Position numbers and translations under genes: made by a program. Below, one piece after another: positions 1,029 to 51,033 of a DNA stretch of 51,122 nucleotides. Positions within the stretch are counted from its first letter, which is position 1, and each line of letters begins with the position of its first letter. The stretch lies in NCBI GenBank assembly GCA_964405095.1, contig CAYOML010000007.1:1-51122 (forward strand), given 5' to 3'. The stretch is from an uncultured Candidatus Saccharibacteria bacterium (GTDB lineage: Bacteria; Patescibacteriota; Saccharimonadia; Saccharimonadales; EFPC-124). Under the pieces are notes generated by a model. It was not told the origin of the DNA. It saw nothing but the letters and a program-made list of their open reading frames with translations, and searched no databases.

Positions 1029-2024
1029 ATGCCCTTTAGCTTTATTGCGGCGATGATATTCGCCGTGATGGTGCCTATCGCTGCGGGCGGCTGGTTTCTG
1101 GCCAGTCGTTCTGTTCGGCGGGAGGCCTCGCAGGATGCCGCTCGGGGCGGCAGTCGCGGTTATCGCGACAGTGCTTGGGACGCTGGCACGGTCAGAAGCG
1201 GGTTCCGATTCGCTTGTGTCGCGCTCATTGTGCTCTCAGGACTGATGCTCCTCATCTCTTCGACGACCTTTGTGTCGACGAAGAATGTAGGCATCGTTAC
1301 CTCGTTCGGCAAACCCGTGGGAGAGCCACTACCAAACGGGATCCACTTTGTGGAACCTTGGAACAAGGTCACCGAGATGGATGGAGCAATCCAGACAGAC
1401 TCACATGCCGGTGATGCTCAGGGTGACACTACGCCTTGCACTACCGTTCGCATTGCGAACCAGTCGACTGCATGTGTCGACAACTCGATTCGGTGGAGAA
1501 TCAGGCTAACGGCTGCGGATGAGCTGTTCCGTGATTACAAGGATTTCGACCGCGTTCGAGATTCACTTGTGACACGGGATCTGTACGCGGCGTTGAACTC
1601 CGTCTTCGCGGGCTATGATCCGTTGGGGACCATCGCGAGTAACGGAGTTTCTAGCGCGCCGAGTCTGGATTCACTGGCGGCGCAGGTCACGTCTCTTCTA
1701 CAGAGGCAGATCGGCGACCAGATCGAAGTCCTTAACGTCATCATACCGCTCGCTCACTACGACGCGTCGACGCAGGATAAGATCAACCAGTTCCAGGCAG
1801 AGCTCGCCAACACGCGCATTGCCAAGCAACGTCAGCAGACGGCCGAGAACGAGGCAGCGGCAAACGCAAAGCTCGCAGCTTCGGTATCCAGGGATCCCAA
1901 CGTCCTGGTGTCGAAGTGTCTCGACCTGCTATTCGCCATTCAGAAAGCGGGCCAACAGATCCCGGCGGGGTTCTCTTGTTGGCCTGGTGGTCAGGCGGCG
2001 GCGGTTATTGCCCAGAATAAGTAA
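1029..2024 (+). CDS. SPFH/band-7 (prohibitin/HflKC-like) membrane protein; coding region is distinctly high-GC
   Basis: N-terminal transmembrane helices are followed by an SPFH-like core and an Ala/Gln-rich coiled C-terminal region (QFQAELANTRIAKQRQQTAENEAAANAKLAAS). GC is well above the window average. Confidence 0.55.
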   Translation: MPFSFIAAMIFAVMVPIAAGGWFLASRSVRREASQDAARGGSRGYRDSAWDAGTVRSGFRFACVALIVLSGLMLLISSTTFVSTKNVGIVTSFGKPVGEPLPNGIHFVEPWNKVTEMDGAIQTDSHAGDAQGDTTPCTTVRIANQSTACVDNSIRWRIRLTAADELFRDYKDFDRVRDSLVTRDLYAALNSVFAGYDPLGTIASNGVSSAPSLDSLAAQVTSLLQRQIGDQIEVLNVIIPLAHYDASTQDKINQFQAELANTRIAKQRQQTAENEAAANAKLAASVSRDPNVLVSKCLDLLFAIQKAGQQIPAGFSCWPGGQAAAVIAQNK

Positions 2025-2035
2025 TCGCTGAGGAC

Positions 2036-2067
2036 GTGTGGGCCCCGGAGAGATCCGGGGCCCACAC
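2036..2067. terminator. GC-rich perfect hairpin (GTGTGGGCCCCGG-AGAGAT-CCGGGGCCCACAC)
   Basis: A 13-bp perfect inverted repeat lies directly after the SPFH gene stop. Confidence 0.55.
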
Positions 2068-2153
2068 GGCAGACCCAGGATTACCACTGTCAAAAGCGTA
2101 AGCAATATGCTAATCTGAAATAAAATCAAACATAGTCAGAGGAAAATTGAAGA

Positions 2154-7595: not shown

Positions 7596-7717
7596 GTCTG
7601 CACCACCCCCATATGCTTATTTCAACGGTCTGGATGCCGAGTGCAGCCGGAGCAGCCCAAATAAGGGCTGCCCCGTGCGGAATGTGCCGTTGGAGTAAAC
7701 ATATGGGGGTGGTGCGG
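7596..7717. mobile_element. MITE-like element: ~122 bp with ~29-bp near-perfect terminal inverted repeats (TGCACCACCCCCATATGCTTATTTCAACGG ... CCGTTGGAGTAAACATATGGGGGTGGTGCGG) flanked by a 7-bp direct repeat CTTGTTG
   Basis: Inverted repeat 7599-7628 pairs with 7687-7717. Direct repeats lie at 7589-7595 and 7718-7724. An inner GCAGCCC/GGGCTGC hairpin is present. Confidence 0.55.
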
Positions 7718-7769: not shown

Positions 7770-9002
7770 GTGGCATATAAATTTAACAAAAAGACGATCA
7801 AAGACGTTCCGATTGACAGCGCGACAGTTCTGATGCGTGCCGATTACAATGTGCCGCTAACCGATGATGGCAAGATTGCCGACGATTATCGTATGCTGCA
7901 GTCGCTGCCTACGCTTAATTATCTAATACGTGCCGGCTGTAAGATTGTGATTACTTCGCACCTGGGTCGCCCAGATGGCAAAGTTGTGCCAAAAGAAAGT
8001 CTGGAACCTGTAGCGGCGCACTTGAGTGAACTATTAAGTAAACCTGTCGGCTTTGTGCCGGATTGCGTTGGCGATCGCGTAAAAGTGGCGGCCAAACGTT
8101 TGAAACCTGGCGGCGTATTGCTACTAGAAAACGTGCGTTTTCATCCCGAAGAAGAAGCTAACGACGCCAAGTTTGCCAAACAAATAGTCGATAGCTCCAC
8201 AGCCACCTACTTTGTACAGGATTGTTTTGGGGTAGCTCACCGGGCACACGCCAGTATTGTCGGAGTAACACAATTTTTGCCATCGGTGGCTGGGTTGTTA
8301 CTTGAGAAAGAAGTTACCATTATTCTTCGGGCCATGCACACCCCCGAGCGTCCACTGGTTGCCGTGCTTGGTGGCGCCAAAGTCAGTGATAAAATTAAGA
8401 TTTTGGAGAAGCTTATTGAACTCGCCGACCAGATCGTGATTGGCGGCGCTATGGCCAATACCTTTCTTAAATACAAAGGTTTGCCAGTCGGTAAAAGTGT
8501 CTGTGAAGAAGGTCAGGATGCCGAGATCGAGCGTGTTTACAGCCTGGTGCGGCAAAAAGTTGGCGATGAGCGGATTGACGACTTTTTACTGTTGCCAGTC
8601 GACGTGGTTGTTGCACCAGAAATTAGTCCTAATCAAAAGCGGGTTGTAGCCGACGTGCATGATGTTAAGTCTGATGAGTATATTTTAGACATTGGTACCC
8701 GTAGCATCGAAGCTATGTTAGAGCACTGTAAAAACGCCAAAACTGTTATTTGGAACGGAACGCTTGGTTATGCCGAATACGTGGTGTTTGCTTACGCTTC
8801 GGCCAAACTTGCTATGCAGTTGGCTGAGCATAAAAACACAGTGTTTAGTTTAGTAGGTGGTGGTGACACGGCCGATTTTGTGGTGCACTGGGATAGTAAG
8901 AAGGGACAGAGTTTTGGGCATGTTTCGACGGGTGGCGGTGCCAGTCTGGAGCTGATGGCAGGTGACAAGCTACCTGGAGTTGAAGCACTGTTAGATGCTT
9001 GA
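7770..9002 (+). CDS. pgk: Phosphoglycerate kinase (GTG start)
   Basis: VAYKFNKKTIKDV...RADYNVPL N-terminus and full-length PGK motifs. Confidence 0.92.
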   Translation: MAYKFNKKTIKDVPIDSATVLMRADYNVPLTDDGKIADDYRMLQSLPTLNYLIRAGCKIVITSHLGRPDGKVVPKESLEPVAAHLSELLSKPVGFVPDCVGDRVKVAAKRLKPGGVLLLENVRFHPEEEANDAKFAKQIVDSSTATYFVQDCFGVAHRAHASIVGVTQFLPSVAGLLLEKEVTIILRAMHTPERPLVAVLGGAKVSDKIKILEKLIELADQIVIGGAMANTFLKYKGLPVGKSVCEEGQDAEIERVYSLVRQKVGDERIDDFLLLPVDVVVAPEISPNQKRVVADVHDVKSDEYILDIGTRSIEAMLEHCKNAKTVIWNGTLGYAEYVVFAYASAKLAMQLAEHKNTVFSLVGGGDTADFVVHWDSKKGQSFGHVSTGGGASLELMAGDKLPGVEALLDA

Positions 9003-9020
9003 ATATTTATGGCCGGGTCC

Positions 9021-9046
9021 CATTAACTGCCTGTGGCAGTTAATGT
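9021..9046 (+). terminator. Hairpin CATTAACTGCC-TGT-GGCAGTTAATG after pgk
   Basis: An 11-bp perfect stem lies 20 nt after the stop codon. Confidence 0.5.
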
Positions 9047-9096
9047 TTTCCTAGCTTGGCCTCGAATGGAGGCTTTAGCCGAATGAGAGCATAAGT

Positions 9097-9178
9097 GCGG
9101 CCACGTGGTTTGCCCCTAGTTTTATTTTTTAGGGTACTAAAAAAGTAAAACTGGGGCGGCCCCACCACGTGTCACCCC
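9097..9178 (-). repeat. Copy 1 of an ~85-bp palindromic repeat family (GGGGTGACACGTGG...GGGGCGGCCCC...AT-rich centre...TAGGGGCAAACCACGTGGC), in reverse orientation relative to copy 2
   Basis: The reverse complement aligns base-for-base at both ends with 24069-24154, with an identical 14-mer GGGGTGACACGTGG. Confidence 0.7.
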
Positions 9179-9262
9179 TTTTTAAACGGTTGTAAACAAC
9201 CGATAGAACCTGCTACACTTACGGTAGTCAAGTAACCATAAGTGGTTTTACTATATATAGGG

Positions 9263-10027
9263 ATGGGAAAACTAATTGTCGCCAATTGGAAGATGCATTT
9301 TACCGTAGGTGCGGCTAGTTTGTTTTTGCACAAATTGCAAGGGGCTGTGCCGACATACAAAGACACCGAGGTCGTGTTGTGCCCGAACACTCTAACTCTT
9401 CAGTCGTTATCATTACAAGTTGATCGGCGCAAGTTTAAGCTTGGTGCTCAGAATTGTTATCACCAAGATGAAGGTGCCTTTACTGGTGAGGTTTCGGCCT
9501 CGATGCTGCGTAGCATCGTTAATTATGTATTGGTTGGCCACTCCGAACGGCGCCATGTTTTTGGCGAAGACGACAAGCTGGTTGCTCTTAAAGTTCAGGC
9601 GGTTTTGCGTAACAATTTACGGCCAATTTTATGTGTCGGCGAAACTAGTCATGAGCGCACCAACGGTGAAACTCCCCATGTTCTGCACGAGCAAGTCACT
9701 ACTGGCCTGGCTAACGTGACGAGTGAAGAAATCGAGCGTGTAGTAATTGCTTACGAACCAGTTTGGGCGATTGGTAGTGATCATAGTGACACCCCAGACG
9801 ATGCGGCTATATCTAGTAAGTTGATCCGCAACCATGTTGACGCGCTGTTTGGTCGGAAGGCCGCGGCCCGAATTCAAATACTCTATGGTGGCAGTGTTGA
9901 TGCTGAGGATGCCGGTGCCTTCTTGGCGGTCAGCGGCATTGACGGTCTGTTGATTGGCGGTAGCAGCCTTAAAGCGCAGACCTTCGCCAAAATAGTACAG
10001 AGGTCACATGATTTACAAGCGGTATAA
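9263..10027 (+). CDS. tpiA: Triosephosphate isomerase
   Basis: MGKLIVANWKMH..., the active-site motif and overall TIM pattern. Confidence 0.9.
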   Translation: MGKLIVANWKMHFTVGAASLFLHKLQGAVPTYKDTEVVLCPNTLTLQSLSLQVDRRKFKLGAQNCYHQDEGAFTGEVSASMLRSIVNYVLVGHSERRHVFGEDDKLVALKVQAVLRNNLRPILCVGETSHERTNGETPHVLHEQVTTGLANVTSEEIERVVIAYEPVWAIGSDHSDTPDDAAISSKLIRNHVDALFGRKAAARIQILYGGSVDAEDAGAFLAVSGIDGLLIGGSSLKAQTFAKIVQRSHDLQAV

Positions 10028-10044: not shown

Positions 10045-11292
10045 ATGAAAGAAATGGATCTTGAGGAACTCGACCAAGAGGTAAGCAAACTGATGGATCA
10101 GGCCAGCAAAGCTAAGGCCAAGCCGGCTAGCGAGCCGCCAGCAGTAGCTTCGACCCCCAAAGTTGCCGATGATAGTGCCGGGACTCCGGTTACTGTCCGC
10201 CGTGCCAGCTTGCAAATCACCCCTCGCAAGCAAGGCATTGCCATGGATATTGTGCAGCCCCAAGTTGCCACACCACCACCGCCTAGTAGTCGTCCGGCCC
10301 GTGTAGCACCAACTCTGCAGCCGACTAAGTCAGTAGCGCCTGACGAGCCTGGTGAAGTTGAGCCGGCTGAAAAGGTTGAAAAAGAAGAACCTAAGGCCCA
10401 AAAAGACGATGTTAGCGATAGCACTTTGGCTGCAATCGATCTAAAAACCGATGGTAAAACACAGCCGTCGCCAACCGAGCCAGACGAAACTATTCATAAA
10501 TCGGTATGGCCCGACCCACTTGAATTACATGGCTTTAAAGAAGACGATGGCAAAAAACAAGAAAAGGAACCAGCTACTGCCGAAGAGGATAAAGAAGACG
10601 ACAAGCCAGCTCCCGAACCACAGCCAACTATGCAACATACTACAGTAATTACGCCACCAACTGCCGATGAAGACGAGGCTAACGAAGAACAAGACGAAAA
10701 ACGACCCGAAGAAGTCACAGAAGAACCAGAGGTCAAAGACACCGCCGACGCTGACGAAGAGGTTAGTAAAAAATCCGACAGTCCGTTCGTAGATACCAAA
10801 GTCGAAAAACGTCCACTCGGTGCCTATACCGATACTAAACCGGTAGATTCACCAAAGATCGACGATCCTACGCGAGACGGTCACGCTATGTCTGAAGAGC
10901 CAGCTGCAACTCACGGTGAACCGGCCAGTATTGCTATTCAAACCCCTAAAGAGCTCAGTGCCGAAGTAGTCGCTGTCGAAAGTGCCGAGCCAGAATTTAC
11001 ACCTGGTGCTCCTAAAACCGCCGAGGCTGATGAACCAAGCGACATGGACAGCCTACGCCAAATGACTATTCCTCAGCAGTACCACGAAACCGAAAAAGAA
11101 CCCAGCCACGAAGACCGACCAGTATTCGATACAAAAGAATACCACCCGCCGCTTCAGCCGGCGCCAGCCGCACCTCACCCTGGCCGAGCGGGTACCATAA
11201 TCACCATAATCTTGATCCTATTAATGATATCGGCCGCTACTCTGGCCTACTTTGTAGTGACAGGCACGATTGACATTTCGCGGTTGCTGTAA
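10045..11292 (+). CDS. Acidic, Pro/Glu/Lys-rich low-complexity protein with a single C-terminal transmembrane anchor
   Basis: AAGGGG RBS. The composition is strongly acidic and disordered. The C-terminus IITIILILLMISAATLAYFVV is a TM helix. Confidence 0.5.
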   Translation: MKEMDLEELDQEVSKLMDQASKAKAKPASEPPAVASTPKVADDSAGTPVTVRRASLQITPRKQGIAMDIVQPQVATPPPPSSRPARVAPTLQPTKSVAPDEPGEVEPAEKVEKEEPKAQKDDVSDSTLAAIDLKTDGKTQPSPTEPDETIHKSVWPDPLELHGFKEDDGKKQEKEPATAEEDKEDDKPAPEPQPTMQHTTVITPPTADEDEANEEQDEKRPEEVTEEPEVKDTADADEEVSKKSDSPFVDTKVEKRPLGAYTDTKPVDSPKIDDPTRDGHAMSEEPAATHGEPASIAIQTPKELSAEVVAVESAEPEFTPGAPKTAEADEPSDMDSLRQMTIPQQYHETEKEPSHEDRPVFDTKEYHPPLQPAPAAPHPGRAGTIITIILILLMISAATLAYFVVTGTIDISRLL

Positions 11293-13996: not shown

Positions 13997-14506
13997 ATGT
14001 TAAAGCCTAAACACGCCAAGGCCAAAAAGGACGATGGTCGCGTTAAAAGAGCTTATGCGGGGCTTGGGCGAGCTGCCCACAAAACCGCGGCGCCACTGCT
14101 GCGCGCAGTATTTGATGAAAAACATGTGCGAGTTAGAGTTCTTATTTTGAGCGATACTTCCGAAGTCTTACTTGTGAGGAGTTGGTTAGGAAACCAGAAG
14201 TGGAGCCTACCAGGTGGTGGGATCCGCCGCGACGAAAGACCAGCCGAGGCCGCCGTGCGAGAAGTTTATGAAGAAACTGGCATTAGGATCGCGATTGACG
14301 ATTTACATGAGCTTGGCTCGTTTACCCATCCTGACCCTAAGCGCCGTTACACCATTGCCTGTTATAAAGTTGATATTCCAAAGCGCCCTCCGCGGATTGC
14401 GCGCCATCGCCGGCTAGAAATGCTCGATGTCGGCTGGTTCCCACTTACCAGTATGCCCAGTGATCGGGGTGCGATGGTCGATATGGCAGTCGCCTTGCTT
14501 GGCTAG
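13997..14506 (+). CDS. NUDIX hydrolase
   Basis: Nudix box GGGIRRDERPAEAAVREVYEETGI. Confidence 0.8.
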   Translation: MLKPKHAKAKKDDGRVKRAYAGLGRAAHKTAAPLLRAVFDEKHVRVRVLILSDTSEVLLVRSWLGNQKWSLPGGGIRRDERPAEAAVREVYEETGIRIAIDDLHELGSFTHPDPKRRYTIACYKVDIPKRPPRIARHRRLEMLDVGWFPLTSMPSDRGAMVDMAVALLG

Positions 14507-14534
14507 ACTTGCTATAATTAGATCCAAGCATTCT

Positions 14535-15689
14535 ATGGGAATTCTTCATTTATGGGGGTTTAGCCGAGTATGGATGCGGTGGGTCGCCCTAGGCGGCCTG
14601 GCGCTGGTGTGTTTGCTGTGGTTGGGTTTTAGTAACCCAGCACCTATCAGGGCCGAAAGCCAACGAGTCATCACTATTTATCATGATGGAGAAGAACAAA
14701 CCGTAGTGACCGACGCTGCAACAATCGGCGAAGCCCTGCAACGCGGAAACGTCAATCTAGATAGCCACGATGCGGTCGAGCCCGCCCGCGATACGCAACT
14801 TATTGCCCCCAGTTACAACATTAATATTTATCGTGCTCGGCCTGTCACGGTGGTCGATGGTAATGAGCGCTATCAGGTTATGAGCGCTCACACCAGCGCC
14901 CGCCAGATTGCGGCCGACGCTGGTTTAACGCTATATGATGAGGACGCCTACGACCTGGCCCGGATCGATAATTTTGTGGCCGAAGATAGTTTGGGTTTAA
15001 AGCTGACCATTCACCGCTCGGTGGCAGTTAAGTTGTTACTGTACGGCCGAGAGATTGAAATGCGCACACTAGCCACAAATGTAGAGCAGTTTATAAAAGA
15101 AAAAGAACTCGTGCCCCAGGCAGACGACCAAGTTTGGCCTGCAGCTAATACGCCGATAACCGATGGTGTAACTATTGCATTGTACGCGGCTGGCACCATG
15201 GATATTGTCGAAGAGCCAGTAGCCTTTGCAGTCAAAAAGATTCAAGACGCCGACAGACCGATTGGCTACCAAGAGGTTCAAACTGCTGGCCAGCCCGGTC
15301 GTCGGTTTGTCATCTACAAGATTGACAGCGGAGTACGCACCGAGCTACAAAGTTACGTCTTAGTGCAGCCTAAAGAGCAGATCGAAATTGTTGGCACTAA
15401 ATCACCGGGTTTTGATGGCGACTTTGCTACTGCGTTAGCCGCCTTGCGCAATTGTGAAGCTCGCGCCAACGGCTACACCACAAATACCGGCAACGGTTTT
15501 TACGGTGCATACCAATTTACACTTACCACCTGGCGTTCTCATGCTCCAGATGGTTGGAAGGACGTGCTGCCTAGTACAGCGCCACCCTCAGTTCAGGATG
15601 CTGCCGCGGTCCACCTCTATAACGCCCGTGGGTGGCAACCATGGCCGGCTTGCAGTGAAAAACTCGGTTTGCAGGATATTTATCGCTAA
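14535..15689 (+). CDS. RpfB-like resuscitation-promoting-factor protein (DUF348 repeats - G5 - C-terminal Rpf-type lytic transglycosylase domain)
   Basis: The C-terminus GYTTNTGNGFYGAYQFTLTTW...WQPWPAC matches the Rpf transglycosylase-like domain. G5-like and DUF348-like segments lie upstream. An N-terminal signal/TM segment is present. Confidence 0.7.
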   Translation: MGILHLWGFSRVWMRWVALGGLALVCLLWLGFSNPAPIRAESQRVITIYHDGEEQTVVTDAATIGEALQRGNVNLDSHDAVEPARDTQLIAPSYNINIYRARPVTVVDGNERYQVMSAHTSARQIAADAGLTLYDEDAYDLARIDNFVAEDSLGLKLTIHRSVAVKLLLYGREIEMRTLATNVEQFIKEKELVPQADDQVWPAANTPITDGVTIALYAAGTMDIVEEPVAFAVKKIQDADRPIGYQEVQTAGQPGRRFVIYKIDSGVRTELQSYVLVQPKEQIEIVGTKSPGFDGDFATALAALRNCEARANGYTTNTGNGFYGAYQFTLTTWRSHAPDGWKDVLPSTAPPSVQDAAAVHLYNARGWQPWPACSEKLGLQDIYR

Positions 15690-17357: not shown

Positions 17358-18857
17358 GTGAAGAAATTTTATATAACCACTGCTATTCCGTACGTCAATG
17401 CTGCGCCGCATATTGGTAACGCACTCGATTTTACGTTGGCCGATACTATCGCTCGCTATCATAAACAACAGGGCAGCGAGGTATTCTTTCAGACCGGCAC
17501 CGACGAGCACGGCACTAAAATTTACAAAAAGGCTGTTGAGATGGGGCAGCAACCGCAAGCCTACGTAGACAGTATTGTGCCGCTTTGGCAGGCGTTCTTT
17601 AAGAAGTTAAACATCGAACCCAATGGTTTTATTCGTACCACCAGCCCGCAGCACGAAAAGGCTGCCCAGTTGGTGTGGACGCAATTGCAAAAATACATCT
17701 ACAAATCCAACTACGAAGGTTGGTACTGTGTGGGCTGCGAAAGTTTTGTAACCCCAAAGCAAGCTGCAGACAATAACGGTATTTGCCCTGACCATAATAA
17801 ACCATACGAAAAACTCAGCGAAGAAAATTACTTCTTTAAACTGAGTACTTTTGGCGAGCAGATCCAACAAGCCTTAACTGCCGGTGAATTTAAAATTGTA
17901 CCGGACTTCCGCCAAACCGAAATCCTAAATCTGATCAAAAGTGGCCTCGATGACATCAGCATCTCGCGGCCTAAAACTCAGTTGCCATGGGGCGTTCCGG
18001 TGCCTGGCGACGACAAACAGATAATGTATGTGTGGTTCGAAGCGCTGCTTAACTATATTAGTGTGCTGGGTTATCCGGACGGTGCAAACTTTAAAAGGTT
18101 CTGGCCGGCTGATGTGTGGGTTGGTGGCAAGGATATTTTGCGTTTTCATGCCGCTATCTTTCCGGCTATCCTGATTGGTCTCGGTCTGCCGCTGCAAAAG
18201 GTTTTGCTAGTGCATGGCCATGTGCTCAGTAGTGGCACTAAAATGAGCAAGACAATTGGCAACGTCATTGACCCTGTCGAGATAATTGACGGCTATGGTG
18301 CAGATGCCTTCCGTTACTATTTTTTGCGCCATGTGCCAACCATTGACGATGGCGATTTTACTTGGGTGAAGTTTGAGACCGCCTATAACACTGAACTTGG
18401 CAACGAACTTGGTAATCTGGTGCAACGCGTGTCAGCAATGATTAATCGCTACCAACACGGCGTAATCGGTGACTTGCCGCGGCCCGAACACGACAACACA
18501 CCACTGCATGCCGAAATAGAACAGTTACGCCTGGATCGAGCATTAGATCATATATGGGCCAAAATCCGTCACCTGAATGTCTATTTGGAAGAAGTTAAAC
18601 CCTGGGAGATCGCTAAAAAACCCGAAGAAGCCGAGCATCTGCAAGAAGTTCTAGCCTACGCTGCCGGCAACTTACAGCAAATTTCGGAGTTATTGTGGCC
18701 ATTTTTGCCAAGCACAGCCGAAACTATCAAACACATCTTCGAAGGCGGTACCGTCAGCCAATATGAGGGAGTCTTGTTCCCCAAAATCTACAAACACACC
18801 ACCGACCCTCGCGCTACTACCCCACAACCAGCAAACACGCCTCCGCCAAAGCAATGA
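17358..18857 (+). CDS. metG: Methionyl-tRNA synthetase (GTG start)
   Basis: HIGN and KMSKT class-I motifs. Zinc knuckle CVGCESF...CPDH. Confidence 0.92.
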   Translation: MKKFYITTAIPYVNAAPHIGNALDFTLADTIARYHKQQGSEVFFQTGTDEHGTKIYKKAVEMGQQPQAYVDSIVPLWQAFFKKLNIEPNGFIRTTSPQHEKAAQLVWTQLQKYIYKSNYEGWYCVGCESFVTPKQAADNNGICPDHNKPYEKLSEENYFFKLSTFGEQIQQALTAGEFKIVPDFRQTEILNLIKSGLDDISISRPKTQLPWGVPVPGDDKQIMYVWFEALLNYISVLGYPDGANFKRFWPADVWVGGKDILRFHAAIFPAILIGLGLPLQKVLLVHGHVLSSGTKMSKTIGNVIDPVEIIDGYGADAFRYYFLRHVPTIDDGDFTWVKFETAYNTELGNELGNLVQRVSAMINRYQHGVIGDLPRPEHDNTPLHAEIEQLRLDRALDHIWAKIRHLNVYLEEVKPWEIAKKPEEAEHLQEVLAYAAGNLQQISELLWPFLPSTAETIKHIFEGGTVSQYEGVLFPKIYKHTTDPRATTPQPANTPPPKQ

Positions 18858-19471
18858 GTCAACCAACTCACGAAGATCTCGGCAAACTCCTGATCGAAGT
18901 ACTGTTACCCTTTTATTTGGTTAAACGTGACATGCGTGTGCCTATAGGTCCGAGGCGCCTGGAGAATGATGCTGAACATTCATGGGCGTTAGCCGTCATG
19001 GCTTGTGCGCTGGCGCCTGAAGTCGACCCGTCATTAGATGTTGGCAAGGTCTGTCAGTACGCGGTCGTGCATGATCTGGTAGAGCTCCACGCCGGGGATA
19101 CGACCCCGTTTGGTAGCAAGCGAAACATCTTATCTAAGGAAGAACGTGAGCATCAGGCATTAGTAACGATTAAGCAACAAACTAAGGTTTTTCCATGGCT
19201 TGCGCAAACGATTACAGAATACGAAAGCCGCTCGACCCCCGAAGCACGGTTTGTATGGGCGGCAGATAAATACATTGCTTTACTCACCAGGCATATGGAT
19301 GAGGGTAAATTTTATCGCAGCATTAAATTGACCAAGCAAAAATTTGATAAACGTATAGCCCGCAACCGCGCCAAAGCCCACGCCCACGAGGCGATCGGCA
19401 AATACTATGATCAATTGCGGGCCGAAGTCGACGCTAGCCCCCATCACTTTTACCAAAAGGACAAAAAATAG
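18854..19471 (+). CDS. HD-domain phosphohydrolase (YfbR-like 5'-nucleotidase family)
   Basis: H...HD...D motif (EHSWALAVMA...VVHDLVELHAGD). Overlaps metG by 4 nt. Confidence 0.7.
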   Translation: MSQPTHEDLGKLLIEVLLPFYLVKRDMRVPIGPRRLENDAEHSWALAVMACALAPEVDPSLDVGKVCQYAVVHDLVELHAGDTTPFGSKRNILSKEEREHQALVTIKQQTKVFPWLAQTITEYESRSTPEARFVWAADKYIALLTRHMDEGKFYRSIKLTKQKFDKRIARNRAKAHAHEAIGKYYDQLRAEVDASPHHFYQKDKK

Positions 19472-20403
19472 TGCAGCTAATAGATACGCATTGCCACATT
19501 CACGAAACCGCCTACGACTTAAACGGAGATAACCCAACGCGCGCGTTGTGGCTAAAAGCCGGAAAACCCAACCCCGACGACATAATTACACGTGCGGTTC
19601 AGGCTGATGTAACTGGTATGATTTGTGTCGGCACCTCGGCGGCCGACAGCCAACTGGCGGTGGATTTTGTTCAAGACCGCCCTAATTGCTGGGCCAGTAT
19701 TGGCATCCATCCGCACGAGGCCAAAGATGGTAAACCTGCATTCAAGCGCCTCAAAGCTTTGCTTGCTAGTCGCAAATCTAAGCCTATACGCCAGCCGGGG
19801 GTGGCGGCCGGCGGGGCATCACCCAAAAATTCTTTTCTGTACCCAGAAAAAATTTTAGGGGAGGCCGGCAGACAGGACCCGCGGACCGCGCATCCAGATA
19901 AAATAGTAGCCATAGGTGAATGTGGTCTGGATTACTTTTACTCCCACTCACCCAAAGCCGATCAGCTCAAGGCCCTTCGTTTTCAGATTGAACTAGCACT
20001 CGAGCACGATTTGCCGTTAATCTTTCATGTCCGTGAAGCCTTTGACGATTTTTGGCCAATCTTTGACAGCTACCAAGGAATCAGGGGAGTGCTGCACAGC
20101 TTCACCGATACCCAAGCCAACGCCGACAAAGCTATCGAGCGCAATCTGTACATCGGTCTCAACGGCATAATGACCTTCACCAAAAGCGATATACAGCTAG
20201 CCATGGCCAAACGCATTCCGTTGCAAAAACTACTACTCGAAACAGATGCGCCCTACTTGACTCCAGCGCCACATCGTGGTAGTATAAACGAGCCCGCGCG
20301 AACTAGGGTTGTAGCCGAGTTCTTGGCTACCCTACGCGACGAATCCCTTGTGGACCTTGCCGCGCAGACTACCCGAAACGCCCGCGAGCTGTTCCATCTT
20401 TAA
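19471..20403 (+). CDS. tatD: TatD-family metal-dependent DNase/hydrolase carrying a ~35-40 aa in-frame insertion
   Basis: TatD motifs are present: MQLIDTHCHI, GIHPH, AIGECGLDY, LETDAPY. The extra low-complexity segment SKPIRQPGVAAGGASPKNSFLYPEKILGEAGRQDPRTAHPD lies between the GIHPH and AIGECGLD blocks. Confidence 0.85.
   Translation: MQLIDTHCHIHETAYDLNGDNPTRALWLKAGKPNPDDIITRAVQADVTGMICVGTSAADSQLAVDFVQDRPNCWASIGIHPHEAKDGKPAFKRLKALLASRKSKPIRQPGVAAGGASPKNSFLYPEKILGEAGRQDPRTAHPDKIVAIGECGLDYFYSHSPKADQLKALRFQIELALEHDLPLIFHVREAFDDFWPIFDSYQGIRGVLHSFTDTQANADKAIERNLYIGLNGIMTFTKSDIQLAMAKRIPLQKLLLETDAPYLTPAPHRGSINEPARTRVVAEFLATLRDESLVDLAAQTTRNARELFHL
19796..19890 (+). repeat. Diverged intragenic copy of the palindromic repeat family, in frame inside tatD
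   Basis: GGCGGCCGGCGGGG...AAAAATTCTTTTCTGTACCCAGAAAAAATTTTAGGGGAGGCCGGCAGACAGGACCCGCGGACCGCG aligns with 24080-24154. Shared features are the TTTAGGGG.GG.C, GGCAGGACCCG and CGGACCGCG blocks and the AT-rich internal palindrome. Confidence 0.6.
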
Positions 20404-23025: not shown

Positions 23026-24075
23026 ATGAGTGGCGGGGTAGATAGCAGCCTGAGCGCGGCACTTTTGCAAAAACAAGGCTACGATGTGACCGGTGTATAC
23101 ATGAAGAATTGGACACAAGATCTGCCCGGGATGGTTTGTCCTTGGGCCGATGACCTGGCCGACGCCAAACGCGTGGCCGTCCAACTTAATATTCCATTTA
23201 AGGTGTTTGATTTCCAGAAAGAATACAAACAAAAGGTGGTCGACTATATGATCGCCGAATACAAGGCCGGTCGCACACCCAACCCCGATATTATGTGCAA
23301 CCAAGAGGTAAAATTCGGGCTGTTTTTGCGAACTGCACTAGACGATGGTGCCGATATGATCGCCACTGGCCATTATGCTAAGGTCAACGACGGTCAATTA
23401 TTTATGGCTGTCGATAAAGCCAAAGATCAAACCTACTTTTTATACCGCGTTACCCAAAATGCACTCACCAAAACTCTTTTTCCGCTTGGTGAGCTTACCA
23501 AAACCGAAGTGCGCAAAAAAGCTATCCAACTTGGCTTGGCCACAGCTACCAAAAAAGATTCACAGGGCATCTGTTTTGTTGGCAAAGTTGGCATTAAAGA
23601 TTTTTTGCAGCAATATGTCAAGGCAGAGCCGGGCGATATTATTGATAAACGCTCCGGCCAGGTTCTTGGTCAGCACGAAGGCGCTATTTATTATACTTTT
23701 GGGCAGCGTCACGGTCTGGGAGTTGGCGGCGGTCTGCCGTATTATGTCGCCCGTAAAGATATGACTAAGAACATAGTCTACGTTACATCCGATCTTAACG
23801 ACGATTCCCTATGGCGCAGCAAACTAACCCTTAGCCAGCTGCACTGGATAGATCAAAAACCGGCAACCAATGAAAAATATAGCGTACGTTTACGCTATCG
23901 GGCCTCTCTGATTGACTGCAGATTGAGTTTGCATGGTAATATCGCAGAGGTCATACTCGCCGAACCAGAACGGGCCATTACTCCAGGGCAATCGGCTGTC
24001 GTCTATGATGGCCACCAGGTGGTTGGCGGTGGGATTGTCGAACCTGATTCTCAAAACCCATCAAACACGGGGTGA
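23026..24075 (+). CDS. mnmA: tRNA-specific 2-thiouridylase MnmA
   Basis: PP-loop MSGGVDSS and the GICFVG catalytic Cys region. The stop codon TGA is provided by the first bases of repeat copy 2. Confidence 0.9.
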   Translation: MSGGVDSSLSAALLQKQGYDVTGVYMKNWTQDLPGMVCPWADDLADAKRVAVQLNIPFKVFDFQKEYKQKVVDYMIAEYKAGRTPNPDIMCNQEVKFGLFLRTALDDGADMIATGHYAKVNDGQLFMAVDKAKDQTYFLYRVTQNALTKTLFPLGELTKTEVRKKAIQLGLATATKKDSQGICFVGKVGIKDFLQQYVKAEPGDIIDKRSGQVLGQHEGAIYYTFGQRHGLGVGGGLPYYVARKDMTKNIVYVTSDLNDDSLWRSKLTLSQLHWIDQKPATNEKYSVRLRYRASLIDCRLSLHGNIAEVILAEPERAITPGQSAVVYDGHQVVGGGIVEPDSQNPSNTG

Positions 24076-24154
24076 CACGTGGCGGGGCGGCCCCAAAGTT
24101 TTTTATGTATTCCCATAAAAAATCTTTAGGGGCGGACCGCGTGGCAGGACCCGG
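24069..24154 (+). repeat. Copy 2 of the ~85-bp palindromic repeat family
   Basis: GGGGTGACACGTGGCGGGGCGGCCCCAAAG-TTTTTTATGTATTCCCATAAAAAA-TCTTTAGGGGCGGACCGCGTGGCAGGACCCGG. Confidence 0.7.
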
Positions 24155-24221
24155 CCATTGGTATCAGGTTTTGAGAGTCAAGTTGTCGAAAGTTCATAAG
24201 TAACGCGTTATACTCATAACT

Positions 24222-33278: not shown

Positions 33279-33578
33279 TAAATAAGTTGTACACAGTCAT
33301 AAATTGACATAACCGTCAATAGTCGGTAAAATACATACATACACTATATGGAGCGCGGAGTTTAGGCTTAAAGCGGCTGTAAAGTGTTCTTCCTTGTAAT
33401 GTCGTAAGAGATGTCTGAACACGTTATAACTAATATATAAAGGTCGACACATCTCGGTTCCAGTGGTGGGGAAGAAAGACATACTAGGAAGTATTGGTTA
33501 CAGTGGTAACACTGCAATCTGGAGACGTATATTCGCACTAATTCGCTTCAGGGCCATGCCCTGGATAGGCCTGCAAGT

Positions 33579-47490: not shown

Positions 47491-49257
47491 CTAGTCTTCA
47501 ATAAACCCACCGGACTGATGTTTCCAAAGCCTTGCATAAACACCGTCCTTTTCGATTAGTTGTCTATGGCTGCCTTCTTCGACAATCTTGCCATCCTGTA
47601 AAACAATAATGCGGTCCATTTTTTGGATAGTACTTAAGCGGTGGGCAATGACAACGGCGGACCGGCCGCTCATTAGCTTCCACAGGGCAGCTTGGATTAG
47701 CTTTTCGCTTTCACTGTCCAGCGCACTTGTGGCTTCATCGAGTACCAGAATTGGGGCATCCTTAATTATGGCGCGGGCGATGGCAATTCGCTGCCGCTGG
47801 CCGCCGCTTAGTTTTATGCCGCGCTCGCCAACCAGGGTGTTGTAACCGTCGCGGAGTTTGGTTATAAACTCGTGTGCGTTGGCTTTTTTGGCTGCTCCCA
47901 CAACCTCTTCGTCAGTAGCCTCCAGCCGGCCGTAACGGATGTTTTCGCTGATGGTGCGGTGAAACATAACTGGTTCTTGCGGCACGTAGGCAATAGCATT
48001 CCTAACCTCAGCTAATTTGGCGGTGGCAATATTCTGGCCGTCAATCAGCAAACTACCGCTGGCTATGTCGTTAAAGCGAAGAAGTAGCTTTGTGACTGTG
48101 GTTTTACCGCCGCCGGAATGTCCAACAAGAGCTATCTTTTCGCCGGGTGAGATGTGCAGGTCAAAGTTAGTGAATAGTGGTTGGCCCTTTCTGGAACCGC
48201 GGTAACTGAAATCGACGTGATTAAAGTCAATCGCACCACGAGTTACCTCGAATGAAGCGGGATTAGCCACCTCCTTGATTCTGTTTGGTGTCAGTATTAG
48301 CTCGGTAAATTGGGCGGCTTCGGCGGTTGCAGTCTCTAGGCGCCGGTATATTTGGTTAAACTCCCAGATAATTCGCGTTGCCTGAACGTAGTAACTAAAG
48401 GTTATAAAAATCTGCGCCATCGTTGCGCCGTCATGGCCCAACATCACCGCCAATGCTAAGCCAACCGTGTTAATAAATACGTATATTGGCGATATTTTGA
48501 GCTCAATGTTGACGTTATGGTATCTCCAGGTGTCGAGCGTTTTATTCATGAAATCGTCAACATTTTGTTCGTGGCGAGTGAGCTCGTGGTCGTAACGGGC
48601 AAAGGCCTGCACGGCGTCCATGTTGCTAATGACGTCGGCGACATGCCCGGAAACTTTGTTTGAGGCTTCCTCGCGGATATCGACCAGCTTTTTGCGGCGA
48701 TGTATTAAGGGTCGGATTAGTAAAAACGTCAGCCCGATCATGCCCAGCAAAAACACAACCAACCAGGGTGAAAACTGCCACAGAACAATCGAGACAAATA
48801 TTAATGGCACAAGGTTGGCTGCTATGTCGAATACGATAGTGTCGAACCAACCTTCAAAATTGCGTCCGTAGGCCAATGCTCTTTTGGTAAGCGAACCGGC
48901 GAAGTTGTTATGAAAGAAACCTAAGTCTTTTTTACTAAGTTCGTGCAAAGCTTCTTTGTATAAATAACGCAGCGATCTAGATTCAAAGTTCTGTAGTAGC
49001 CAGAATGTTGTCCGCCACATAGTCTCGCCGGCGAGCCACACCCCTGCGAACGCCATCAAATATGGTAAAAGGTCATTAAAGTTGGGGAGTGTTCCGTTGA
49101 AGCGTTGTAGTACTGCTGCTACGACTAGCGGTGGAGCATAAAATACCAGTATTGCGCCTAATGACACGGCGATCAGTGACAGAATCGAAAACTTGCGGTA
49201 CCGCCACACAACTGCTATGTAGCGCTGAGTTGCGAGCTGAGTTGCATCTTTATTCAT
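47491..49257 (-). CDS. ABC exporter, fused permease + ATPase (MsbA/MDR type), subunit 1 of a tandem pair
   Basis: Six-TM domain, Walker A GHSGGGKTT, signature LSGGQRQR and Walker B ILVLDEATSALD. Confidence 0.85.
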   Translation of the reverse strand: MNKDATQLATQRYIAVVWRYRKFSILSLIAVSLGAILVFYAPPLVVAAVLQRFNGTLPNFNDLLPYLMAFAGVWLAGETMWRTTFWLLQNFESRSLRYLYKEALHELSKKDLGFFHNNFAGSLTKRALAYGRNFEGWFDTIVFDIAANLVPLIFVSIVLWQFSPWLVVFLLGMIGLTFLLIRPLIHRRKKLVDIREEASNKVSGHVADVISNMDAVQAFARYDHELTRHEQNVDDFMNKTLDTWRYHNVNIELKISPIYVFINTVGLALAVMLGHDGATMAQIFITFSYYVQATRIIWEFNQIYRRLETATAEAAQFTELILTPNRIKEVANPASFEVTRGAIDFNHVDFSYRGSRKGQPLFTNFDLHISPGEKIALVGHSGGGKTTVTKLLLRFNDIASGSLLIDGQNIATAKLAEVRNAIAYVPQEPVMFHRTISENIRYGRLEATDEEVVGAAKKANAHEFITKLRDGYNTLVGERGIKLSGGQRQRIAIARAIIKDAPILVLDEATSALDSESEKLIQAALWKLMSGRSAVVIAHRLSTIQKMDRIIVLQDGKIVEEGSHRQLIEKDGVYARLWKHQSGGFIED

Positions 49258-49260
49258 AGG

Positions 49261-51033
49261 TTATTCCTCAATAAACCCACCGGACTGATGTTTCCAGAGG
49301 CCAGCATAGACACCGTCTTTTTCGAGCAATTCCTTGTGTGTACCTTGTTCGACAATCTTGCCGTCTTCCAGGACCACAATGCTATCCATACGCTGAATGG
49401 TGCTTAAACGGTGAGCGATCACAATTGCCGTGCGGCCTTCCATTAATTCCCATAATGCCGATTGGATTAGCTTTTCACTTTCGCTGTCTAAAGCGCTGGT
49501 TGCTTCGTCGAGTACCAAAATTGGGGCGTCTTTTAACATGGCGCGGGCAATGGCTACGCGTTGTCGTTGGCCGCCACTTAACTTTATGCCGCGCTCGCCA
49601 ACCAGAGTGTCGTAGCCGTTCGGTAGCTTATCGATGAACTCGGTGGCATTGGCGCGCTGGGCGGCAAGGAGGACATCATCATTAGTGGCTTTAGGTGTGC
49701 TGTAGGCGATATTCTCGCGAATACTTCGGTGGAATAGCAACGGTTCTTGTGGTACGTATGCGATGGAACGCCGAAGGTCGGTCTGGCGAATGTCGGCAAT
49801 ATTCTGGCCATCAATACTTATTTCGCCCGAGTCGATGTCGGAGTAACGCAACAGAAGTTTTGTAAAAGTGGTTTTGCCAGAGCCAGAGTGTCCGATCAGA
49901 CCGATCTTTTTACCGGGTTCTATTTTCAGACTCAAGTCTTTAAATAGGGGCTCGTGCGCGTCGGGGTGGCTAAAGTAGACGTCCTTAAATTCTATCTTAC
50001 CCTTCTTTATTTGAGCATCTTGCGGGCTGGTTGAGTCTTGGACCTCACTCTTCAATGCAAGATTATCTAGCATTTGCTGCGAGTCACCAATTGCGCGGTT
50101 GTAATTGCGTAGTGTTTGGGTACTAAACTCCCACAACCTTTGAGTTAGATCGCCGGTGTAGGCAAGCATCAGGAACACAGCCGCTACATCAGCTCTAAAG
50201 AGGACGACGCTGGCGCAGGCAATAACTAACGCCGAAACATTTATGGTGCTCGTAAAGCTGCCGGACAAAATATCACGACGAGTTGTCACGCGCATTACGT
50301 GAGTAGTGGCTGCCCGGCTGGCTTCGGTAACGGCCGCATAGCGTTGGTTTTCGTAACCTTCGGCAGCGAAGCTCTTTATGGCCATAATGTTAGTCATACC
50401 ATCGGCCAAATAACCGGTTTGCTTGTTTTGAGCTTCGGCTTCGGCAGCGTTGGCGGCCCGAACTCTGCGACTGAATAAGTACATTGTCACCATGAAAATA
50501 AGGCTAATTACCCACAGCGCAATCACATACATTGGCGAGCGCGGCCACAAAATGAATGAAGCAAAGCTATAAGCCACAATCATAGTAACGATGTCAAACC
50601 AAGTACTATCAGCAAAACGTATGTATGCACCGGCTAACTTGTTGGTCTGCGATACTAACGAACCGCCAAAGCGATTAGCATGGAAGGTCGAGCTTTGATT
50701 TATAAGGTGCTCGAAGACTTCTTGATGGATGTCCCTAGTTACCAACATCTCCAGCTTCCAGATCAAAATCACCGAAATTCGCCATAAAACAATCCCGCCC
50801 AAAAAGACAAGGGCAGCGTAAGTCATAAGTGATGGTCCAAAACTGCCCCACAGGTCGTTCCTTGTAAAGTCACCGTGGCTTACGCGGTTTATGACATCAG
50901 CAGCAACAAGCGCCGGCAAAAAGGCGTTGAATAACACACTGAGGGGGATGAATATGGCAAGACCCACAATATACTTTGGGTACTTGCGCATATGGCCCCA
51001 GAAATACTGGACCGTCTGCTTTGCAGCTGCCAT
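49261..51033 (-). CDS. ABC exporter, fused permease + ATPase, subunit 2 (paralog of the preceding gene)
   Basis: Walker A GHSGSGKTT and LSGGQRQR. The C-terminal 40 codons are near-identical to the neighbour at the DNA level. Confidence 0.85.
   Translation of the reverse strand: MAAAKQTVQYFWGHMRKYPKYIVGLAIFIPLSVLFNAFLPALVAADVINRVSHGDFTRNDLWGSFGPSLMTYAALVFLGGIVLWRISVILIWKLEMLVTRDIHQEVFEHLINQSSTFHANRFGGSLVSQTNKLAGAYIRFADSTWFDIVTMIVAYSFASFILWPRSPMYVIALWVISLIFMVTMYLFSRRVRAANAAEAEAQNKQTGYLADGMTNIMAIKSFAAEGYENQRYAAVTEASRAATTHVMRVTTRRDILSGSFTSTINVSALVIACASVVLFRADVAAVFLMLAYTGDLTQRLWEFSTQTLRNYNRAIGDSQQMLDNLALKSEVQDSTSPQDAQIKKGKIEFKDVYFSHPDAHEPLFKDLSLKIEPGKKIGLIGHSGSGKTTFTKLLLRYSDIDSGEISIDGQNIADIRQTDLRRSIAYVPQEPLLFHRSIRENIAYSTPKATNDDVLLAAQRANATEFIDKLPNGYDTLVGERGIKLSGGQRQRVAIARAMLKDAPILVLDEATSALDSESEKLIQSALWELMEGRTAIVIAHRLSTIQRMDSIVVLEDGKIVEQGTHKELLEKDGVYAGLWKHQSGGFIEE

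Follow-up and report, generated by a model that had tools for sequence, protein, structure and literature searches.

We have examined a 51,122-nucleotide stretch of DNA from an uncultured Candidatus Saccharibacteria bacterium (contig CAYOML010000007.1 of assembly GCA_964405095.1, positions 1 to 51,122; hereafter the window), in which the tatD gene carries a segment that extends its coding sequence. An initial annotation, made from the sequence alone, proposed that this segment is a copy of a palindromic repeat that also occurs between genes of the window, and that the repeat behaves like the Rickettsia palindromic elements (RPEs), which lie in frame within genes. The host gene and its extra segment are as follows:

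19471..20403, plus strand: tatD, 310 amino acids, a TatD_DNase TIM-barrel hydrolase (open reading frame and Pfam PF01026)
19777..19902, plus strand: extra tatD segment of 126 nt, or 42 codons, encoding ...SKPIRQPGVAAGGASPKNSFLYPEKILGEAGRQDPRTAHPD (pairwise DNA and protein alignments)

The PF01026 domain spans TatD residues 4-309 (E=6e-65, 219.5 bits against a gathering cut-off of 27), and the metal ligands H7, H9, E150, H186, H209 and D259 are all intact in the window protein and invariant across its orthologs. As the initial annotation remarked, the protein is longer than typical family members. Solved TatD/YcfH chains mostly have 260-273 residues, with two eukaryotic TATDN1 chains at 295-301, and most Saccharibacteria orthologs have 266-273. 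When aligned with P0003/L001, the nearest syntenic ortholog that has no insert (80% identity across the aligned columns), the window gene shows an insertion at 19777-19902 that places the 42 codons between the GIHPH and AIGECGLD blocks, just where they had been proposed to lie; more exactly, they follow the helix after GIHPHEAK and precede the strand KIVAIGECGLD. The reading frame is open through the insert, also as proposed. The extra segment is absent from homologs in the PDB, the best structural match being 1yix, in which only the eight chain residues 74-81 stand opposite query residues 87-137. The insert has a GC content of 0.63 versus 0.49 for the window, and the element would be read in the tatD frame as GVAAGGASPKN...GRQDPRT. 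Close homologs of the window proteins come without exception from Saccharibacteria or Patescibacteria metagenome-assembled genomes (MAGs), and the gene order metG-(HD)-tatD-two small open reading frames-aminotransferase-...-mnmA is common to the window and loci L001, L017, L018 and L020.

To relate the insert to the intergenic repeats we utilized a covariance model, termed R1, whose training set comprised 16 intergenic copies (14 from other genomes) and left out the tatD insert. The model and the family pattern define two features within the gene:

19788..19890, plus strand: full-length R1 match, model positions 1-106 (67.3 bits, E=3.5e-16)
19798..19880, plus strand: element core in tatD, GGGGTGGCGGCC...CAGACAGGACCC; its apex is an AT-rich mini-hairpin (TTTTCTG TACCC AGAAAA)

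With filters off, the best unrelated R1 match over the window reaches only 16.9 bits. A blastn search of the insert against the whole window returned the insert itself and an intergenic copy located downstream of mnmA (copy 2; 24069-24153, 73% over 86 nt, E=2e-9) and nothing else, and the two intergenic copies of the window (copies 1 and 2) match each other by blastn. The insert contains the DNA motifs that the initial annotation had listed as shared, fits the conserved ends GGGGTGGC...GACAGGACCC better than do both intergenic window copies, and matches both of our search patterns; conserved in the family are the terminal sequences GGGGTG(G/A)C ... G(A/G)CAGGACCC as well as the internal-loop motif GG.GGGGC, which the insert shares. 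Rather than vanishing in a proper alignment, the similarity to the intergenic repeats is far above chance by both blastn and R1. The tatD insert is a diverged member of the intergenic palindromic repeat family.

There are two trivial explanations for this match that need to be considered. The first is that the similarity is coincidental or due to low complexity, with the segment being nothing more than a hypervariable TatD loop. Loop length is indeed hypervariable across TatD orthologs, and many inserts, such as that of L017, are without a detectable R1 match. Against this stand the full-length match from a model blind to the insert, the presence of both conserved termini with stems and loops in the same order, and the R1 matches of the TatD inserts from L077 and L078 (E=3e-10 and 3e-15, respectively). 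Given these matches to three separate inserts, coincidence is effectively refuted. The second is that metagenome assembly wrongly placed a repeat copy within tatD, a concern that arises because the contig derives from a MAG and because one metagenome contig, L027, looks chimeric via the element. However, the insert is flanked on both sides by tatD sequence that is in frame and collinear with the orthologs, the independent assembly P0002 (a Logan contig) has an identical N-terminal half that includes the insert, and five other assemblies have ortholog copies in the same loop. We consider the probability of such an artefact to be negligible. The two contigs just mentioned are unusual in their own right. 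P0002 (1245 nt) encodes a TatD C-terminal half that is far more diverged from that of the window than is its N-terminal half, and could be a recombinant or a chimeric contig. In L027 (3-1196, minus strand) a single open frame joins the N-terminal half of tatD, up to the insertion loop, to an element copy and then to a LigD primase-polymerase domain; this is either an assembly chimera formed via the repeat or the product of genuine recombination at elements.

A pattern derived from the three window copies was found at 14 places in 185,579 species genomes (one-genome-per-species GTDB contigs), and a second pattern added 56 metagenome contigs, giving about 70 known copies in all. The family is specific to Saccharibacteria and related Patescibacteria in that all 14 genome matches are in MAGs from these groups, with the 56 metagenome contigs carrying no taxonomic label. 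Ten of the 14 genome matches are in a single MAG, JARIHL01, where most copies have near-identical cores at unrelated sites. A scan of viral contigs with the family pattern gave 0 matches, and thus there is no sign of a phage vehicle. No Rfam family was found with the gathering score over the whole window or with a permissive E-value for two copies; other Rfam matches were far below gathering, as for the MIR2646 hairpin at 46.5 versus 245 bits. Full-text searches of the literature likewise turned up no account of an element of this type from Saccharibacteria, Patescibacteria or the Candidate Phyla Radiation (CPR), and the earlier remark that this behaviour is undescribed for this kind of genome therefore stands for Rfam and the searchable literature. 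A protein search with the element-encoded peptide, a short query padded with X, was uninformative: it left 4 candidates after the word index and gave two matches at E up to 10, both to tiny open reading frames.

The element, which is ~85-105 nt long, folds as one long hairpin with conserved internal loops and has the consensus GGGGTGGCACGCGGCGGGGCAGC-CCCAAAA-(variable AT-rich apex)-TTTTAGGGGCGGACCGCGTGACAGGACCCC; this is extended by A-rich sequence on the 5' side and, in many copies, by CAGTCCTTATT on the 3' side. Across 54 copies, 92.3% of cells are paired as compared to 73.9% in shuffles, although pairing is somewhat inflated by the fitting of the alignment to the model. In 18 of the 27 pairs both sides have changed, none of 500 shuffles did as well, and the pairing collapses when the register is slid. 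The hairpin is kept by compensatory changes.

In addition to tatD, the same family lies in frame within several other genes. A copy splits the PGK domain in L049, and a GC-rich copy in reverse orientation (10344-10427, minus strand) splits the HUP domain of MnmA in L018, where MnmA is 431 residues long (390 in L017, at 14077-15249, and 350 in L001). Further in-frame copies occur in a LigD linker (L034/L035) and in the C-terminal region of DnaX (L076). Eight peat-metagenome loci (L021, L026, L029, L043, L045, L056, L062 and L068) encode a giant protein of up to >3000 residues that has no Pfam domain and contains a conserved 25-residue element-derived segment, GV(A/T)EGGASPA...GETRGQD; the element forms an island of 65-69% GC within 39-46% GC at these loci. 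The commonest reading frame of the coding copies is GV(A/T).GGA(A/S)P...G..R..(G/T)P. Copies within genes fold less stably, with a median folding z of -2.1 for 14 intragenic copies versus -3.7 for 26 intergenic ones (Mann-Whitney p=0.007), and in the tatD copy, with a z of -1.2 as compared to -2.9 to -4.6 for the intergenic copies, 6 of the 27 model pairs are broken by non-canonical combinations. As a separate observation, a type IV pilin-like gene of L009 has a recent copy with perfect 28-nt arms (2097-2255) in frame within its predicted leader peptide, which is thereby extended from about 12 residues to about 56.

Conservation of the stem, together with conserved unpaired nucleotides, could also mean that the repeat is a functional structured RNA or cis-element (a 3'-end stabilizer, a terminator-like hairpin or a protein-binding site) that has been recruited many times, with the tatD copy being retained because it acts at the RNA level, for instance in translation pausing or mRNA stability, instead of being a passive selfish insert. 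Intergenic copies are within ~0-50 nt of gene ends and adjoin 3' ends more often than 5' ends (46 versus 24), which is in keeping with such a role, as is the behaviour of the inverted repeats that flank some copies (described below), which often overlap stop codons and exhibit compensatory double changes between two related copies. However, orientation relative to the neighbouring gene is unbiased (21 versus 25), the hairpin is without a following run of T residues, no Rfam family corresponds to it, and near-identical copies at unrelated sites in one MAG point to recent spread. The weaker hairpins of the intragenic copies, that of tatD included, also argue against an RNA-level role, and compensatory maintenance is equally a property of DNA elements that are recognized as hairpins, such as those of the repetitive extragenic palindromic (REP) and REPIN type. 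We therefore regard an RNA function as an improbable explanation for the repeat in tatD.

Structural modelling, which had been proposed as a check on tolerance of the insert, was performed with AlphaFold2 and 119 homologs. This gave a confident TIM barrel (mean pLDDT, the per-residue confidence score, of 88.8; predicted TM-score, pTM, of 0.85) in which residues of about 104-141 have pLDDT <50 and no secondary structure, and are located between helix 81-103 and strand 145-154. In TIM barrels, helix-to-strand loops face away from the catalytic C-terminal strand ends. The insert is thus probably a floppy surface loop, and the notion of a tolerated loop holds to the extent that the AlphaFold2 model predicts one on a confident barrel. 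The enzyme is probably functional since the metal ligands are invariant, including those of the window protein.

Comparison of 119 TatD orthologs shows that 87 have <=9 residues at this loop, nearly all of them the four-residue sequence A-x-K-P, while the loop is expanded by >12 residues, and by up to 119, in the other 32. The inserts of L078 and L077 match R1 on the plus strand with 63.1 and 44.5 bits, respectively, and in L016, L018/L019 and L020 the tatD insert is the best R1 match of each locus at 18-20 bits, also on the plus strand. The insert-bearing orthologs at this loop hold recognizable element copies, and so the possibility, raised by the initial annotation, that orthologs devoid of the repeat carry the same insert does not apply. 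The 77-residue insert of L017 (P0014) gave no detectable R1 match; membership of the family therefore cannot be claimed for every loop expansion. The junction CGCCAGCCG|G(G/C)GGTGGC, which is read as RQP|GVA, is common to the window, L078 and L079 and is near-identical in L016, with CGCCAGCCG corresponding to diverged G-K-P codons of the empty site. In L077 and L020 the element is read in another phase ('GW.PAGQ' as opposed to 'PGVA.GGA.P') and with other junctions, and L020 has an apparent remnant of one copy together with a second copy. The carriers are scattered in a neighbour-joining tree of the non-insert TatD columns. Because the element is read in at least two frames, the loop has probably been hit more than once, and we favour at least two, and probably several, independent insertions followed by erosion.

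A different history would have one ancient insertion in an early Saccharibacteria ancestor, inherited vertically and lost precisely or nearly so in most lineages, in which case the loop is no recurrent target. The 5' junction and reading frame shared by the window and L078, with the junction sequence recurring in L079 and nearly so in L016, speak for such a history, as do the single orientation of all tatD copies and the 5-19 residue loops of some orthologs that look like deletion remnants. Opposed to it are the other phase and different junctions of L077 and L020, the apparent remnant plus second copy of the latter, and the contrast between the window copy (67 bits) and that of L016 (20 bits on the family model at 68% protein identity). 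Since carriers are scattered among insert-free sequences that nearly always have the same four-residue loop, a single origin needs many exact losses. We consider it unlikely, although it retains more weight than any other alternative discussed here. Carriers inside the clade of the window itself may partly share an origin.

Taken together, these results lead us to conclude, with a probability of roughly 0.88, that an interspersed hairpin-forming repeat of Saccharibacteria and Patescibacteria landed in frame in tatD, where a copy of it makes up the 42 extra codons. The element would have inserted into the codons for A-x-K-P, a short helix-to-strand loop located before beta-strand 4 (KIVAIGECGLD). 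It is by chance open in the tatD frame and would therefore be translated. Insertion would be tolerated because this loop is on the TIM-barrel face opposite the catalytic strand ends, and the inserted peptide would be disordered and evolve faster than the remaining TatD sequence. Within a gene the hairpin would no longer be fully maintained and would decay. The family presumably spreads mainly into the first few tens of bases past gene ends, with in-frame copies surviving only at permissive loops and linkers; the TatD loop would therefore have been colonized repeatedly and then eroded by deletions. The element is probably mobile, as suggested by the near-identical copies at unrelated sites in one MAG.

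Several points weigh against this interpretation. The inflated pairing mentioned above is one, and the junction CGCCAGCCG|GGGGTGGC shared by the window, L078 and L079 is another, as some carriers may descend from one old insertion with later losses. The low pLDDT could reflect a poorly aligned region instead of true disorder, the structural argument being a prediction. Translation of the insert is predicted from the sequence, and an unannotated intein or intron-like removal would be conceivable, with nothing that hints at such an event. Finally, no target-site duplication or excision footprint was identified, nor was a transposase, for which no search was made, and so mobility rests on distribution.

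The remaining copies and copy-like sequences in the window are:

24059..24162, plus strand: intergenic copy 2, directly 3' of mnmA (R1, 91.8 bits)
9083..9188, minus strand: intergenic copy 1, flanked by pgk (7770-9002) and the following gene (9242-10027) (R1, 87.1 bits)
9009..9213, minus strand: full ~210-nt block that includes copy 1 (comparison with the L015 spacer)
2018..2087, plus strand: candidate internally deleted remnant, a GC-rich hairpin GTGTGGGCCCCGG...CCGGGGCCCACACGGCAGACCC just after the open reading frame 1029-2024 (R1, 16.9 bits, E=0.02)

The mnmA stop codon, TGA, falls within GGGGTGAC of copy 2 (24040-24075), and MnmA ends here in ...EPDSQNPSNTG while its orthologs stop 6-10 residues sooner; the last MnmA residues come from either the element or its flanking arm. 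The orthologous spacer downstream of pgk in L015 is without the whole ~210-nt block. The initial annotation correctly recognized copy 1 as a repeat but misplaced its 3' boundary, as the true end, GGGACCCGGCCAT, is near 9010; the copy is longer than first given because its own 3' end is separated from GTGGC by a nested insert of ~73 nt. The nested piece holds a perfect small hairpin, ATTAACTGCC-TGT-GGCAGTTAAT. The hairpin at 2018-2087 looks like an element whose AT-rich apex was deleted, a possible assignment given its weak score.

An additional property of the family is the presence of inverted repeats, or arms, in the DNA that surrounds individual copies. These are copy-specific, are located on either side of the core in unique DNA 8-12 nt beyond it, and were observed for 22 of 63 copies. 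The arms of copy 2 and the loci of the armed copies are as follows:

24041..24058, plus strand: 5' flanking arm of copy 2, AACCTGATTCTCAAAACC, which pairs imperfectly with 24167-24184 (flank comparison)
24167..24184, plus strand: 3' flanking arm of copy 2, GGTTTTGAGAGTCAAGTT (flank comparison)
Armed copies: in JARIHL01, L003, L005, L006, L007, L009, L011, L013 and L014; also L031, L047, L051, L054, L066, L067 and L074; in the window, 24041-24058 / 24167-24184

In JARIHL01 the arms, of 13-41 nt, are perfect, and copies with identical cores have unrelated arms. The tatD copy has only a weak trace of arms (CGCCAGCCG / GCGGACCGCG). At seven loci the stop codon of the upstream gene is inside the 5' arm, and in L009 the 5' arm includes the TGATG stop/start overlap of two pilin genes. 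These overlaps with coding sequence offer some evidence that the target sequence was copied in inverted form to give the 3' arm. Conflicting with this is some evidence that arms may travel with the element, as the copy 2 arm is nearly identical to that of L033 in an unrelated context, and as L066 and L074 have common spacers and arms with different outer flanks and two compensatory double changes between them.

Several origins for the arms were considered and set aside. A fold-back assembly artefact was rejected in that the core between the arms is asymmetric, the arms end after <=41 nt with unique sequence beyond and vary in length, and diverged arms as well as arms with compensatory changes are present in other assemblies, including the window. 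An intrinsic terminator composed of arms and core was rejected as there is no run of T residues after the 3' arm. Targeting of pre-existing hairpins by the element was judged unlikely given that arms overlap coding ends and the stop/start overlap of L009. Direct target-site duplication was also looked for, with nothing convincing in three comparisons of filled and empty sites (tatD, mnmA-3' and pgk-3'); the sequence GTCGAA flanking copy 2 is ambiguous as a direct repeat because TCGA is palindromic.

To our knowledge, and in the review on MITEs, the miniature inverted-repeat transposable elements, that we consulted, no bacterial small repeat with inverted target duplications is known. One can envision that a single-strand hairpin is joined to the target and that 13-41 nt of one flank are regenerated in inverted form on the other side, which would be a new mechanism for bacterial small repeats; we hold this to be rather doubtful. 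A possible route would start from a broken end that is capped and then opened off-centre, with the ends being joined by LigD/Ku, a system that these genomes encode. Once formed, the arms could then move with the element. If this is true, then spread by regenerated flanks coupled with recurrent in-frame colonization of permissive loops would make the element a general source of disordered insertions in the proteins of CPR bacteria.

Among known systems, there is a close functional likeness to RPE-1 through RPE-10, in-frame palindromic repeats in housekeeping genes (Ogata et al. 2000, as summarized in PMC10969869). RPEs are also short (about 100-150 bp) palindromic interspersed repeats present in many copies in a reduced-genome, host-dependent bacterium, and occur both between genes and in frame within unrelated housekeeping genes, as the present family does in tatD, pgk, mnmA, ligD, dnaX and the gene for the giant protein. 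The peptides inserted by RPEs occupy sites compatible with the fold, as AlphaFold2 predicts here, and no transposase or clear target duplication is known. Unlike RPEs, which are from Alphaproteobacteria, the family described here resides in the phylum Patescibacteria, shows strong conservation of its termini and internal loops together with many compensatory changes, exhibits inverted flank repeats on a third of its copies and has probably hit one protein loop repeatedly. The RPE-like behaviour put forward initially is thus borne out as an analogy. We would view the family as an analogue and no member of the RPEs because its host belongs to the Saccharibacteria; it is likened to them by behaviour, and a sequence relationship would be unexpected.

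REPINs are REP doublets that form hairpins, are mobilized by RAYT transposases and are extragenic by definition. The present element resembles them in being a ~100-nt hairpin with two imperfectly inverted conserved halves and a variable apex, in compensatory maintenance of the stem, in its preference for positions just past gene ends and in having many near-identical copies in one genome. It differs in often being intragenic and in frame, so that the strict extragenic definition fails, and in being without a GTAG-type 5' motif. No RAYT gene was found, although no search for RAYT was made, and inverted flank repeats are, as far as we know, no feature of REPINs. A final comparison is with MITEs, which in bacteria are found within genes in the form of ERIC/RU in enterobacteria, Correia elements and QMITE1 (Delihas 2007, PMC2759123; review PMC10969869). 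Like the present family, these are small repeats that have inverted ends and are non-autonomous, and they can harbour open frames and give rise to in-frame fusions. MITEs, however, have the terminal inverted repeats of a parent insertion sequence and direct target-site duplications, while the flanks of the present element, where repeated, are inverted repeats. Neither MITE hallmark was found in our analysis, which covered ~8 kb around each copy and included no search for a transposase or autonomous insertion sequence.

What is described here is a new repeat family that exhibits a known kind of behaviour in a new lineage, with two notable traits: the inverted flank repeats and the probable repeated colonization of one loop. 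Selfish palindromic DNA in coding genes has for 25 years been a textbook curiosity of Rickettsia. Saccharibacteria are members of the CPR that have tiny genomes and an epibiotic lifestyle. The occurrence of RPE-type behaviour in these bacteria points to convergence, and this route of protein evolution may be one to which reduced, recombination-poor genomes are prone. The element explains why TatD, MnmA, PGK and further core proteins differ oddly in length among CPR MAGs, is a repeat able to produce chimeric contigs, and provides a ready marker for strain-level studies of presence and absence. The copy-specific inverted flank repeats, if real in vivo, could reflect a new mechanism of insertion or repair.

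Several other features of the window were observed. A gene for an HD-domain (YfbR-like) protein at 18854-19471 is located between metG and tatD, with the same junction being without it in L001, L017, L018 and L020; the metG-tatD spacers of L017 and L018 contain another open reading frame on the reverse strand. A very stable intergenic hairpin upstream of pgk (7600-7715) has 29-nt arms with 90% complementarity (-78 kcal/mol, z = -8.4); it shows no relation to the element, Rfam gives no match for it at the gathering score, and none of the fetched loci contains a copy. A lysM-TM7 RNA (Rfam RF03005, 72.8 bits), which is diagnostic of the lineage, is present at 33387-33524, and two 300-nt direct repeats at 47492-47791 and 49262-49561, which have 75% identity and are 1770 nt apart, are probably tandem paralogous genes.

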